A stretch of 10,163 bases of DNA, taken from a virus. Taxonomy: Duplodnaviria > Heunggongvirae > Uroviricota > Caudoviricetes. The notes below the pieces were generated by a model that ran no database searches, was not told the DNA's origin, and saw only the letters and a program-made list of their open reading frames with translations. The stretch lies in IMG/VR virus record IMGVR_UViG_2713896787_000009; one strand, written 5' to 3'. This document shows positions 1,561-6,269 of this stretch, piece after piece (position 1 is the first letter of the stretch; each line of letters begins with the position of its first letter). The position numbers were made by a program, and so were the translations under genes.

Positions 1561-2095
1561 ACAGGTTTGTGAGGCTCTGGATACCTGGGTATGCCGACCA
1601 GGAATGACACAGGAGCAGGCGACGATATTAATCACGGAAGCATTCTGGGCTCTGAAAGAACGCCCGAACATCGATGTTCAACGCGTCACGTTTAATGATG
1701 GCGAGGTTGATCAACGGGCGCTGGGCGTTAACCGGGTGAAGATATTCGAACGCTGGAAAGCTATCGACACCAGAGATAAGCGTGACAAATTCACGGCGCT
1801 GATTCCGGCAATTATGGAGGCTATCCGGATCAGCGATTTCAGATTGTATTGTGAAATTACTGACGGAAAAAGCATTACGTACATGATCGCCGGGTTAAAC
1901 AAAGAATATGGCGATGTGGTGGAGTCCGGGCTGCTTTTTGCGGATCCAGTTGTTGTGGAACGTGAGACTGACGAGCTTATAGAAAAAGCTATTGCTTTCA
2001 AGCACGCGTATCGTCAGCAATACCAATATTACTTTGCAGATAAACAAATGTCTGCCAGGGGTTCGTATGAGTATCGATGCACTACGATGGGCTAA
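1544..2095 (+). CDS. YdaT-like protein (cII-position gene), 183 aa
   Basis: ATG 1544 overlaps the restored cro stop; sits between cro and the replication gene; the RW...LIPAI motif region resembles my recollection of YdaT-family proteins (unverified). Confidence 0.6.
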   Translation: MKITTEQVCEALDTWVCRPGMTQEQATILITEAFWALKERPNIDVQRVTFNDGEVDQRALGVNRVKIFERWKAIDTRDKRDKFTALIPAIMEAIRISDFRLYCEITDGKSITYMIAGLNKEYGDVVESGLLFADPVVVERETDELIEKAIAFKHAYRQQYQYYFADKQMSARGSYEYRCTTMG

Positions 2096-3107
2096 AAAGG
2101 TGAAAACCGGCAGTTCATCCAGTAAGTCAGTATTGACCTGGCTTGCTGATATGTGCGGTGCCGATTTGTGTGCATACCCGTCTGTATCTGCACTGGCAGA
2201 AGTAACGGAACTGAACAAAAAGACTGTGCAGGACAGCTTACGACACCTGATGGAGATTGGGTTAATTGTTGATACCGGTGAGAGAAAAGGCAGAACAAAG
2301 CAAATTGTGGTGTACCGACTTATCGGTGTAGAAGAAAGTGTTGCCGAGCCTGAATACACCCAAAAACGGGAGTCTTTAAAGGTGGGTAAAATTGGTGCTG
2401 TTAATAAAAACAGTACCGAAAATGGTTATGTTTCAGCACAAAACAGACCCAAAAACAGAACTCTTAGCTGCATGGAAAATAACCAAAGACACCCAAATTT
2501 TCCATCAAAGACACCCAAAAACGGATCACGGAACCCAAAGGAACCCAAAGATCTAAACCCCACACATAACGCACGCGAGAGTGCTCCGACCAGTGAGCAG
2601 GAAGTTTTGTCGTTACAGGCAGCCCCCCCTGTATTCCTGTATGGCCTGAGCGAACCCATCGGAAAATTCCCGATGAGCGATAGCTGGTATCCGTCACGGG
2701 ATTTTCGACGACGGGCTGCGTTGTGGGGGATGGCTTTGCCGGAGACAGAATTTACACCTGCTGAACTTGCCGCCTTCCGGGACTACTGGGCAGCGGAGGG
2801 GAAAGTGTTTACGCAGATTCAGTGGGAGCAGAAATTCGCCCGTCACGTAAATCACGTCAGGGCGCAGGTTAAACCAGTCAGCAAAGGGGTAAACCATGCA
2901 GCAGCACCAGGTGGCACCGCATCACGGGCAGTTCAGGAAATTCGGGCAGCACGTGAGCAGTGGGAACGTGAAAACGGATTTATCAGCGACGGAAACGGCC
3001 TGGAAGCTGTGGGAACTCATGGGGGTGGTTTATTCGAACCGCTGGATCCAGAAGAACGGGGCCGCACCTTCGAAGCTCTGGATTGCACAGATTGGCGCGA
3101 TGACTGA
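2067..3107 (+). CDS. Replication initiation protein (N-terminal HTH DNA-binding domain, C-terminal DnaT-like domain), O-analog
   Basis: ATG 2067 with AGGGG RBS 5 nt upstream (the in-frame ATG at 1992 lacks an RBS and lies inside the upstream gene); N-terminal HTH-like segment, low-complexity linker, C-terminal W/F-rich DnaT-like segment; 3' extent uncertain because of the 211-bp overlap with the next gene. Confidence 0.7.
   Translation: MSIDALRWAKKVKTGSSSSKSVLTWLADMCGADLCAYPSVSALAEVTELNKKTVQDSLRHLMEIGLIVDTGERKGRTKQIVVYRLIGVEESVAEPEYTQKRESLKVGKIGAVNKNSTENGYVSAQNRPKNRTLSCMENNQRHPNFPSKTPKNGSRNPKEPKDLNPTHNARESAPTSEQEVLSLQAAPPVFLYGLSEPIGKFPMSDSWYPSRDFRRRAALWGMALPETEFTPAELAAFRDYWAAEGKVFTQIQWEQKFARHVNHVRAQVKPVSKGVNHAAAPGGTASRAVQEIRAAREQWERENGFISDGNGLEAVGTHGGGLFEPLDPEERGRTFEALDCTDWRDD
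2443..2550. repeat. Iteron-like direct repeats (core ACCCAAA, 5 copies; exact 14-bp CAAAGACACCCAAA x2; tandem GAACCCAAAG x2); candidate replication origin
   Basis: Core starts at 2447, 2491, 2513, 2533, 2543 (spacings 44, 22, 20, 10); located in the interdomain linker of the initiator gene, next to an AT-rich stretch (2395-2442), as ori-lambda lies inside gene O. Confidence 0.45.
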
Positions 3108-3594: not shown

Positions 3595-4329
3595 ATGGAG
3601 ACTGTTTTTGACGCACTGAAAGCGATGGGAAAAGCCACGTCGGTAGAGCTGGCTGCGCGACTTGATATCAGTCGTGAAGAAGTACTGAACGAGCTGTGGG
3701 AACTGAAAAAGGCTGGCTTCGTTGATAAAAGAGTATACACCTGGCGTGTGGCTGATAACAACGTTCAGCAGGAACAGCCAGCGCCAGAAGAAACCACCAC
3801 GGCAACAGAAGCGAAAATCTCAGAGTGCGATTTAACCGCGACGATTGAACAACGCGGACCACAAACGGCGGATGAACTGGCTACGCTGTTCGGTACAACA
3901 TCCCGCAAAGTTGCTTCAACGCTGGCAATGGCAATCAGCAAAGGTCGTCTGATTCGCGTAAACCAGAACGGTAAAATTCGTTACTGCATACCAGGTGATA
4001 ATTTACCAGCAGAGCCGAAAGTTGAATCGGTAGCGGAAACCGATGGTAAAGCCTTTCCTCAGCCAGCCGGTGTTGCGTTACCGGTACAGAAAGATGCAAC
4101 ACAGGAAGATATTAAAACAGAAACTGTGGCGGACATTGTGCAGTCGCTGCCATCGTTTACTGCAACGCGAGAAGATGATTTGATTTTGCCATCGCTGCAT
4201 ATGGCAAATCGCGAACTGCGTAGGGCGAAGAATCATGTCCAGAAGTGGGAGCGAGTCTGCGCCGCGCTGCGGGAGCTGAACAAGCACCGGGATATGGTTG
4301 CCGGGATTTGTCGGAAGTCCGGGCAATGA
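3595..4329 (+). CDS. Conserved phage hypothetical protein with two tandem winged-helix-like segments and an acidic/Thr-rich linker
   Basis: ATG 3595 with GGAGG RBS; 244-aa ORF; internal duplication (residues ~5-50 vs ~85-125) with HTH-like pattern. Confidence 0.7.
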
Positions 4330-4458
4330 GCGGATGGTGCAGGCCTGAAATCATGATACTAACAATGAAGGTAAAATGCATCGGCAGTCTGATTGGTCGT
4401 AGTGAGGCGGCGGTCAGGATGAAAGCCCAGGTTAAGGGAATAAGCCTGATTCTGCGGG

Positions 4459-4937
4459 GTGATTTTCACCAGTCAACAAAATATCCGTAGCGCGATAACG
4501 GTCAAAAATTATGGCGCTGACACTTTTGTGCCACTGGAGATGACTGTACCTAAGTTCAGGGGAGAAGAACACGTCCGGTGGGATGGTCGGGCCAGATTTA
4601 AAGGGCAGGTCATGGCTCCAGCCTGTACGCTGGCAATGGAGGCTGCCTGGCGGGAAATTGATATGGGAACCACGCCACTCAGGGATTTACTGCCGGTCCA
4701 GAGAATAAATTCCTGTTACGGTTACACCACTGTGATCTTGCAAGTGCAGGAAAGTAGGTCTACACGGTAACGCGAGTGCGTGTAACTTTTGATGTCATTC
4801 CCGTAGAAACACCGGACAAATTTTCGCTGACAGGTCATGCAGAAGGTATAAATCTGCAGATTATGGACAATTACGGATATCCGGCAAGAGCCGGAAAAAG
4901 CATGCCGCCTCTAATTCTCAGTGGAAGATGGACTTGA
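4459..4937 (+). pseudogene. Degraded fimbrial major-subunit-like gene remnant (frameshifted, no signal peptide, truncated C-terminus)
   Basis: Frame 1 segment (to 4770) contains FKGQVMAPACTL...IDMGTTPLRDL, close to the FimA-type motif FKGEVVNAACAV...VQLGQV; the other frame (4776-4937) contains GINLQIMDNYG, resembling the GVQILD subunit motif; a single indel between 4758 and 4768 would join them. Confidence 0.35.
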
Positions 4938-4996
4938 TTATACTCATTGCATTGTCAGAAATAGTTATCCATTAAAGGCTGGCTATTCCAAACAGG

Positions 4997-5024
4997 ATGT
5001 TGATTACAAAAATGTAATCAACAT
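4997..5024. promoter_or_regulatory. Perfect 12-bp inverted repeat with 4-bp spacer (ATGTTGATTACA-AAAA-TGTAATCAACAT) upstream of the PEB3/AcfC/Paa-like gene; candidate operator
   Basis: Exact dyad symmetry over 28 bp in the AT-rich upstream region that also holds TATAAT (5051-5056) and TTGACT (5070-5075). Confidence 0.4.
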
Positions 5025-5188
5025 GTAAGGTTTATACTCTTCAATATGCGTATAATTTTCCTTATTTTGTTGACTTTAAATAACAAGCTATGCACGAGGT
5101 AAAGTCGGATAAGTTTATCTGGATGTAATATATATTATTTGTAGTGTTTATAACTTTATTTCATGATAACCAATAAAAGGAGTTTTTT

Positions 5189-5947
5189 ATGAGGAACATA
5201 ATGGCAGGTTTTTTAATATTCCTGTCTTCTGCTGCTTATGCTGATATCAATCTGTATGGTCCTGGTGGCCCGCATACAGCCTTGCTTGATGCAGCCAAAC
5301 TTTATGCCGAAAAAACAGGTATTATAGTGAACGTTCATTACGGCCCACAGAACAAATGGAATGAAGATGCCAAAAAAAATGCAGATATCTTGTTTGGCGC
5401 ATCAGAACAATCTGCTCTGGCTATCATTCGGGACCATAAAGACAGCTTCAGTGAAAAAGATATTCAGCCTCTTTATCTGCGAAAAAGTATTTTACTGGTA
5501 AAGAAAGGTAATCCTAAAAATATCCGGAGTATTGACGACCTGACCAGACCTGGGATTGGCGTAATTGTTAATGATGGTGGTGGTACCAGTAATACATCAG
5601 GCACTGGCGTCTGGGAAGATATTGCCGGACGTAAAGGGAATATAGAAACTGTCGCCGCAATCCGAAAAAATATTATTTTATATGCGCCCAATAGCGGAAC
5701 TGCACGTAAGGCTCTTGAGAATCAGCCTGGAGCAGATGTCTGGATAACCTGGGCTGACTGGGCAGCCAGTAATCCAGAAATTGGTGATGTCGTGGAAATA
5801 GCGCCAGACTACGTGATATGGCGTGATATGAACATTACAGTACGTCAGGATGCAAATGATGAAACCCGTCGATTTGCAGAATGGCTACAAACCGATGAAG
5901 CGGCGCCTGCATTCAAAAAATATGGCTGGACCAGGAAAGGCACTTGA
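5189..5947 (+). CDS. paa: Secreted PEB3/AcfC/Paa-family protein (ModA-like periplasmic binding-protein fold), 252 aa
   Basis: ATG 5189 with AAGGAG RBS 6 nt upstream; signal peptide MRNIMAGFLIFLSSAAYA; motifs DINLYGPGGPHTAL, ADILFGAS, SNTSGTGVWEDI, WITWADW, FKKYGW; markedly low GC; own promoter region and terminator; no adjacent permease or ATPase genes. Confidence 0.65.
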   Translation: MRNIMAGFLIFLSSAAYADINLYGPGGPHTALLDAAKLYAEKTGIIVNVHYGPQNKWNEDAKKNADILFGASEQSALAIIRDHKDSFSEKDIQPLYLRKSILLVKKGNPKNIRSIDDLTRPGIGVIVNDGGGTSNTSGTGVWEDIAGRKGNIETVAAIRKNIILYAPNSGTARKALENQPGADVWITWADWAASNPEIGDVVEIAPDYVIWRDMNITVRQDANDETRRFAEWLQTDEAAPAFKKYGWTRKGT

Positions 5948-5950
5948 CAT

Positions 5951-5980
5951 CCTCGTCCTTCAGGACGTGGATTCTTTTTC
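5951..5980 (+). terminator. Rho-independent terminator after the paa-like gene
   Basis: Hairpin CGTCCT-TC-AGGACG (5954-5967), extendable by two GC pairs, followed by TGGATTCTTTTTCC. Confidence 0.5.
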
Positions 5981-6066
5981 CGGATGCCGCGCCAGCGGCA
6001 TGTAGGGGCAGCTCACAAAACGGAAAAAATTGTACGCTAAGCCTCGCCAGGTGAACTGAATTCATT

Positions 6067-6090
6067 CCGATATGGGAATTCCCATATCGG
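6067..6090. repeat. Perfect 24-bp palindrome CCGATATGGGAATTCCCATATCGG
   Basis: Exact dyad symmetry centred on GAATTC; lies between the paa-like gene and hok/mok, possibly in the hok promoter or leader region. Confidence 0.5.
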
Positions 6091-6189
6091 GCGAAAACGG
6101 TTTGCTGTAACGGCAGAGTTAAGTAGGATTGCTGCGGGTGCTTGAGGCTATCTGCCTCGGGCATGAACACCAACGGCAGATAGATAAAA

Positions 6190-6269
6190 GCCCCACCCGA
6201 CTATAAATCGAAGTGAGGCCCCTATATGCTCGTCACATATAGATTGCCTCTTACGGACCGAAAGGTCAA
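6190..6269 (-). ncRNA. Putative Sok-like antisense RNA region opposite the mok start (boundaries approximate)
   Basis: Position expected from hok/sok biology; minus-strand -35-like TTGACC (plus 6264-6269); no clean -10 or terminator identified. Confidence 0.25.

Follow-up and report, generated by a model that had tools for sequence, protein, structure and literature searches.

The open reading frame (ORF) at positions 5189–5947 (+ strand) of the virus record IMGVR_UViG_2713896787_000009 (Duplodnaviria; Heunggongvirae; Uroviricota; Caudoviricetes) is paa (adfO, Z2053 of O-island 57 or OI-57), a gene that has already been described. The whole stretch of DNA that was analysed, 10,163 nucleotides (nt) long, is called here the window, and positions are counted from its first letter. 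The overall explanation, to which we assign a probability of about 0.9, is that paa is a lysogenic-conversion (“moron”) gene, carried as a cassette by a Rac/Qin-like lambdoid prophage of the OI-57/PPompW type in its early-right region. Such prophages are found in attaching-and-effacing and Shiga-toxin-producing Escherichia coli. The additions made here are refinements, namely the edges of the cassette, the palindrome at its left edge, the fimbrial remnant beside it, the orphan status of the gene throughout its family and the conservation of the ligand-site motif.

The identity of the gene was established by a nucleotide comparison with complete E. coli genomes, in which the DNA between 4700 and 6200 was 100% identical to chromosomes of O157:H7, O111, O26, and O103 strains. 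The region was carried by 577 of the 5,426 genomes, a genome being counted as a carrier if one place covered at least 80% of it. RefSeq names the identical coding sequence (CDS) “paa: AcfC family adhesin Paa” (WP_001449026.1), while phage records of PPompW prophages and Stx2a phage composites label the identical gene [quoted passage not shown]. The exact Paa protein heads a cluster of 616 member sequences, and a separate cluster of 92% identical proteins exists. The original prediction, made from the letters of the DNA without database searches, had proposed a comparison with OI-57-like prophages, and the identical gene was indeed found in prophages of this type under the names paa, Paa, or AdfO. 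According to an O-island review, which equates the gene with adfO (Z2053) of OI-57, adfO is always accompanied by ckf (Z2054), and the hokD gene of the window was taken as the equivalent of ckf, the companion marker of adfO. Relative to the known copies, such as that of O157:H7 EDL933 (OI-57/CP-933O), the window has the same gene, the same hokD neighbour, and the same position in a PPompW-type prophage, without any substantive difference. Its backbone is nearest to O111 prophages, to which the full window is 99.6% identical over 10.2 kb. The copy of O157:H7 strain PV15-279 contains an IS1203 insertion that the window lacks: there (locus L001, 5056–7408, corresponding to about 1992–3107 of the window) the element splits the O-like/DnaT-like replication gene, which is intact in the window. 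The gene is a catalogued virulence marker of enterohaemorrhagic (EHEC), enteropathogenic (EPEC), and enterotoxigenic (ETEC) E. coli, and through OI-57 it serves in the molecular risk typing of strains that produce Shiga toxin.

The gene lies in a unit of about 1 kb that is common to the prophage and to IncF plasmids. Its features are the following:

4997–5024, no strand: perfect 28-bp palindrome ATGTTGATTACA-AAAA-TGTAATCAACAT (inverted repeat I6), the left edge of the DNA common to prophage and plasmids.
5052–5057, + strand: candidate −10 hexamer TATAAT, perfect, invariant in the prophage and two plasmid copies, putative only.
5177–5182, + strand: ribosome-binding site AAGGAG, 6 nt 5′ of the ATG, kept in the plasmid and E. 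albertii copies.
5189–5947, + strand: paa (adfO) CDS, encoding a precursor of 252 amino acids (aa; 27.7 kDa) and a mature protein of 234 aa.
5189–5242, + strand: signal-peptide codons (MRNIMAGFLIFLSSAAYA), 18 residues, Sec type, with predicted cleavage before Asp19.
5949–5979, + strand: intrinsic-terminator-like hairpin with its stem at 5949–5971, a UUCA loop, and then UUCUUUUU at 5972–5979.
5984–6001, + strand: second hairpin, ATGCCGC-gcca-GCGGCAT, the last element in common with the plasmid copies, which places the right edge at about 6003.

The strong ribosome-binding site and the 18-residue signal peptide of the original prediction were both borne out. The N-terminus reads MRNIMAGFLIFLSSAAYA|DINLYGPGGPH, with one basic residue (Arg), a hydrophobic core, and A-Y-A at positions −3 to −1, which is read as a signal peptide of the signal peptidase I type with a predicted cleavage site, giving a putatively Sec-exportable, non-lipidated product. 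Since a sequence scan found no cysteine, and hence no lipobox, in the whole protein, Paa is not a lipoprotein. In the phmmer alignment, residue 19 of Paa falls opposite the first residue of 3fj7_A, a PEB3 crystal chain that we took as a mature-protein construct; as that chain begins at the residue matching Asp19, the length of 18 residues is supported. The PHROG family phrog_11834 begins at Met5 of the ORF (5189–5203), thus some phage annotations start at the second ATG (5201). The earlier one, at 5189, is favoured because of the spacing of AAGGAG and the basic residue in the N-termini of the homologues.

The limits of the unit were set by variants of paa on IncF plasmids, mostly of pig and cattle sources, which show 86–89% DNA identity. 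Plasmids pSTEC388_3 and pCFS3246-1 have the same left palindrome, AT-rich leader, ribosome-binding site, 252-aa ORF, and both downstream hairpins, but their flanks differ (IS1, the sta1 enterotoxin gene, and the IncFII repA region) and they lack the adjoining fimbrial remnant and the 6004–6118 spacer of the prophage. In pCFS3246-1, a gene predicted to encode a heat-stable enterotoxin (sta1) lies some 2 kb from paa. RefSeq labels the plasmid product just as “substrate-binding domain-containing protein”. The self-contained module that had been proposed at 4940–5980 is therefore a real unit, but its edges are at about 4997, where the palindrome starts, and about 6003, after the second hairpin. 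The terminator assigned to it held up: the stem begins 2 nt past the stop codon and is followed by UUCUUUUU, a terminator scan matched 5954–5967, folding of the RNA from 5940 to 6030 (91 nt) gave −35.8 kcal/mol (z = −3.9 relative to shuffled sequences), and the core of the hairpin is kept in the plasmid copies. Short direct and inverted repeats flanking paa (11–13 nt, e.g. I3, I5, and I7) were considered as transposon ends and rejected, being two-copy repeats at chance level, none of which brackets the edges of the cassette.

Separate acquisition of the cassette, which had been deduced from low G+C content, is supported because the cassette recurs on IncF plasmids and a Rac-type phage with the same flanks lacks it. 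This distribution is stronger evidence than base composition. The leader (4997–5188, the 192 bases 5′ of the ATG) has a G+C content of 25.5%, and the 250-nt segments lowest in G+C of the whole stretch start at 4941–5001 (27.6–28.4%, compared with a mean of 49% (49.1%) and a standard deviation of 6%). The contrast thus stands for the leader, but it is moderate for the coding part, whose G+C content is 43.9%, with 34.8% at third codon positions (GC3); most flanking genes have a GC3 of 44–67%, but the phage gene rem is similarly low (41.8% and 35.6%, respectively). A chromosomal homologue of E. albertii (L013, 6001–6762; 87% protein identity) is not prophage-borne. It is located in a PTS/aga-type sugar locus, between two gene sets of the mannose/sorbose-type phosphotransferase system (PTS) and tagatose-bisphosphate aldolase type. 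All that it has in common with the E. coli cassette is the coding sequence and the ribosome-binding site.

The protein belongs to the PEB3/AcfC/Paa family and not to ModA/Sbp, as the original prediction had it. The Pfam match was SBP_bac_11 (E = 5.5e-34), and phmmer searches of the PDB sequences gave PEB3 3fir (E = 1.2e-81, residues 11–248) as the best solved relative, with AcfC 4jb7 (E = 3.5e-81, residues 16–248) beside it, both matches spanning the entire mature protein. The next matches were sulfate-binding proteins at 1e-4 and worse, and ModA scored 0.13. The AlphaFold model of Paa, built on a 15-member alignment, had a mean predicted local distance difference test score (pLDDT) of 89.9. 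When this model was compared with solved structures by Foldseek, it superposed on AcfC 4jb7 with a template modelling score (TM) of 0.89, a root-mean-square deviation (rmsd) of 1.3 Å, and 52% identity, and on PEB3 3fj7 with a TM of 0.87 and an rmsd of 1.5 Å, while ModA and Sbp gave a TM of 0.70–0.73 at 15–18% identity. Mature Paa is thus modelled as a two-lobed class-II periplasmic-binding-protein fold of the ModA/Sbp type, in line with the ModA-like fold that had been expected. ModA, Sbp, and CysP have this class-II fold and the Pfam family in common with Paa, and in all of them anions are probably bound between the two lobes.

The alignment, which covers members from Escherichia, Salmonella, Yersinia, Edwardsiella, Enterobacter, Aeromonas, Vibrio, Francisella, Helicobacter, and Campylobacter as well as from metagenomes, has 69 invariant columns. 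The GPGGPH and SNTSGTGVWED blocks are wholly invariant in 15/15 members, and so are the lettered positions of ADILFG.S.QSA, PNSG.A, and D.W.TW.DW. Residues T136/S137/G138 of Paa, within SNTSGTG, are aligned with T138/S139/G140 of PEB3, and we take them to be the ligand-contact site of the PEB3 type; the T138A/S139A change reportedly abolishes binding of 3-phosphoglycerate and phosphoenolpyruvate by PEB3. The numbering of PEB3 was confirmed by the PDB sequences, because residue 135 is E in 3fir and K in 3fjg, as the reported K135E mutant requires. The full conservation of this motif brings into sharper focus the choice between an adhesin and a ligand-binding protein as the role of Paa.

PEB3 of Campylobacter jejuni (PDB 2hxw, 3fj7, 3fjg, and 3fir) is 52–53% identical to Paa, with a TM of 0.86–0.87, and has all the conserved motifs, including T138/S139/G140, a Sec signal peptide, and an orphan gene, the last as seen for a Campylobacter relative. 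Its K135 corresponds to T133 in Paa, and it is encoded by chromosomal core DNA, whereas Paa is prophage cargo. PEB3 is N-glycosylated at a DFNVS sequon, where Paa has DSFSE. A Campylobacter-type D-x-N-x-T sequon, DMNIT, was found elsewhere in Paa by a regular-expression match (D213–T217, positions 5825–5839, with Asn215), and N215 is invariant in the family alignment; in E. coli, a host without that glycosylation system, it is probably irrelevant. AcfC of Vibrio cholerae (VC_0841, PDB 4jb7) is a colonisation factor encoded in a horizontally acquired virulence island, where a relative adjoins ToxT and TCP-type genes. The acfC gene is co-transcribed downstream of acfB, a relative of methyl-accepting chemotaxis proteins. 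The paa gene has no such companion: no chemoreceptor gene is found near it either in the window or in the annotated O157 locus.

As for the function, we slightly favour, at somewhat better than even odds, a periplasmic ligand binder with an indirect effect on adherence over direct adhesion. In such a mechanism, the lysogen would express paa from an AT-rich promoter belonging to the gene itself, without dependence on the phage late genes, and Sec would carry Paa into the periplasm. In that compartment, or once it is released further, Paa might bind a small phosphorylated, sulfated, or carboxylated anion or, alternatively, such an anionic group on host mucin or glycosaminoglycan, and ligand binding could promote adherence and gut colonisation, as the literature has it for Paa, AdfO, PEB3, and AcfC. 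The literature in favour includes an O157 adfO mutant with weaker adherence to HeLa cells and fewer secreted proteins. AcfC is periplasmic, binds sulfated glycosaminoglycans and mucin, and affects chemotaxis towards mucin, and expression of paa in EDL933 (where it is named acfC) was higher in the bovine rectum than in intestinal contents. For porcine EPEC, the literature claims reduced colonisation by a clean deletion mutant, with complementation, in an animal model.

Several observations weigh against the overall explanation. A scan with the σ70 consensus found no promoter-like site within 4997–5188; the only nearby match on the + strand, at 4915–4944, is outside the common cassette, and the five sites found in total do not exceed the mean of the shuffled sequences (4.3). 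The perfect TATAAT at 5052–5057 is preceded by a poor −35 on reading of the sequence. Of the AT-rich promoter region that had been predicted, the AT-richness is real, but the promoter is only putative and part of the region is decayed coding DNA. The ligands of the relatives differ as well, L-phospholactate in PEB3 3fj7 and D-aspartate in AcfC 4jb7 according to the PDB titles, and the binding of sulfated glycans by AcfC in an enzyme-linked immunosorbent assay (ELISA) adds to this heterogeneity. Finally, periplasmic location alone would not explain a direct adhesin role, and no route to the cell surface is visible in the sequence of Paa.

The strongest rival, credible although it falls short of even odds, is that Paa is a surface-exposed adhesin, which reaches the surface or the medium after Sec export and binds host-cell or mucus receptors, e.g. 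sulfated glycans, so that the binding-protein fold is used as a lectin-like module. The literature calls Paa and PEB3 adhesins, and adhesin is also the RefSeq product name, but for Paa the term is a literature label. The binding of AcfC to heparin, chondroitin sulfate, and mucin in ELISA fits this role, but AcfC was fractionated to the periplasm, and it does not mediate adhesion to Caco-2 or HT-29MTX-E12 cells, to which the acfC mutant adhered normally. Similarly, the O157 adfO mutant adhered less to HeLa cells, but it was pleiotropic, with fewer secreted proteins. The sequence itself contains no anchor, autotransporter, lipobox, or fimbrial assembly feature and no Cys, and the invariance of the ligand-site motif throughout the family, including Francisella, Aeromonas, and metagenome members, fits small-molecule binding. 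The weighting of periplasmic ligand binding and direct adhesion, with the rest left to other readings, is our judgement and not a result.

A third possibility, which we consider unlikely, is that the 4997–6003 unit is a discrete transferable cassette in which the palindrome serves as the operator of a regulator, switching the gene on in the gut, or as the recombination site through which the cassette moves, and that Paa is a periplasmic sensor and not an adhesin. If so, Paa would sense a host-derived phospho- or sulfo-metabolite and tune adherence indirectly. The palindrome at 4997–5024 occurs once in the window, with zero matches expected from shuffled sequences, and the conserved TATAAT implies a start site about 50 bp downstream of it. 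Its core, TTACAAAAATGTAA, was present at 4/4 E. coli paa loci and at 0/9 other loci, the palindrome being absent at the homologue loci of E. albertii, Edwardsiella, Enterobacter, Francisella, Helicobacter, Campylobacter, and Vibrio. Because of this absence, it is not a regulatory element of the whole family. It may be an operator or a recombination boundary, or it may be there by chance.

The window corresponds to the early-right part of a lambdoid prophage resembling Rac and Qin. Its genes are arranged from the left as a cI-like repressor (− strand), a cro-like gene, ydaT, an O-like initiator, a P-like helicase loader, a DUF1627 gene (ydaW-like), and the cargo, followed by sok/hokD, rem, a DUF968/HNH gene, rusA, Q, and a tRNA cluster. 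Phage Rac MN652886 is homologous to the backbone up to about 4305 (the DUF1627 gene) and again from about 6119 (sok/hok), with unrelated small genes between, while other phages match only one flank. Since the Rac phage has the same flanks and unrelated genes inside, 4305–6119 is a variable cargo slot. Besides the paa cassette, the slot holds three things, and its spacer contains a palindrome of its own:

4326–4490: small phage-family ORF (phrog_30109).
4495–5028, + strand: decayed fimbrial minor-subunit gene, annotated by RefSeq as “fimbrial protein, frameshifted; internal stop” in the identical O157 copy.
6004–6118, no strand: spacer of 115 bp between the cassette and sok/hokD, which travels with prophage-borne paa.
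6067–6090: perfect 24-bp palindrome CCGATATGGGAA/TTCCCATATCGG (inverted repeat I4), in the spacer.

The fimbrial remnant is prophage cargo outside the paa cassette, with recognisable homology at 4520–4996. Pfam gave no match for the two ORF fragments upstream of paa, and the fimbrial nature was taken from RefSeq and from DNA homology. The remnant is 86% identical to an intact 195-aa fimbrial gene of strain EC21Z-147, which directly precedes the usher gene of a PapB/FocB-regulated chaperone-usher operon. In the alignment, the damage consists of deletions of 10, 5, and 18 nt, a frameshift, and a stop. The arrangement suggests that paa entered the phage within a larger patch that once adjoined a fimbrial operon. 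The stretch at 5998–6118 was found at a coverage of at least 80% in 577 genomes, equal to the count for the paa region, and three more genomes had it only partially.

This setting could also suggest that paa is a roleless passenger in a decaying cargo patch, given that the neighbouring fimbrial gene is broken and that such prophages are often defective, as the IS1203 insertion in the O157 copy exemplifies. We regard this as very improbable: the ORF is intact and 100% identical across serotypes, the diverged plasmid copies are annotated as intact 252-aa CDSs and the 92% identical protein cluster exists beside them, and a transcript and mutant phenotypes are reported in the literature.

No permease or ATP-binding cassette (ABC) ATPase gene was found among the ORFs and annotations of the window, nor within 9 kb on either side of the identical O157 copy (annotated 19.5 kb, L001). 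The loci of seven homologues (Edwardsiella, Enterobacter, Francisella, Helicobacter, Campylobacter, Vibrio, and E. albertii) contained no dedicated adjacent ABC operon either. The ABC loci upstream of the Edwardsiella and Enterobacter homologues have their own binding proteins and are separated from them by gaps of about 0.7–1.8 kb. The Vibrio relative lies among ToxT and TCP-type island genes, and the Campylobacter relative near cdtABC. The PEB3/AcfC/Paa family is thus generally one of orphan binding proteins, and the absence of transporter partners, which had been noted from the window alone, extends to the O157 surroundings and to these relatives. In Enterobacter bugandensis (L008, 1313–6750), the homologue is about 690 bp downstream of a complete ABC locus that encodes a binding protein of its own (SBP_bac_11/SBP_bac_1) together with an ATPase and a fused permease of 589 aa, in a layout like that of iron or sugar-phosphate (Afu-type) importers.

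That Paa is the binding component of a true molybdate, sulfate, or thiosulfate ABC importer, displaced from its operon, is effectively refuted by the family scores and this gene context: although the fold and the Pfam family SBP_bac_11 are those of ModA, Sbp, and CysP, the NCBIfam sulfate, thiosulfate, and molybdate models matched only weakly, at 11.7–22.6 bits against curated cut-offs of 62.5–470 and each over only about 30–80 residues (a sulfate substrate-binding protein model 22.6 bits, cut-off 288; a second model 21.5, cut-off 155.5; CysP 19.0, cut-off 308; modA TIGR01256 18.3, cut-off 62.5), and the identity to the ModA/Sbp structures is far below the 52–53% to AcfC and PEB3. The claim that the protein is not an ABC-transport component therefore stands, as neither a true ModA/Sbp match nor a nearby permease turned up. 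A reading of the letters without tools had thus correctly recognised the gene family, the orphan status, and the cargo nature of the gene, and such a clean confirmation is a useful outcome.

Directly downstream of the cargo slot, a complete hok/sok-type type I toxin–antitoxin locus was observed at 6136–6438, comprising the sok RNA at 6136–6285 (Rfam, 103.9 bits) and hokD at 6283–6438. One N at 6382 breaks the reading frame of hokD in the window. Further downstream, the tRNA cluster at 9569–10163 follows Q and contains a masked run of 50 N (9900–9949). ARAGORN recognised Met(CAT), Lys(TTT), Arg(TCT), and Arg(TCG) in the cluster, with a partial tRNA at the end of the window; Lys(TTT) is not in the Rfam listing, and the first tRNA of the matching clusters in two relatives is tRNA-Ile according to RefSeq.

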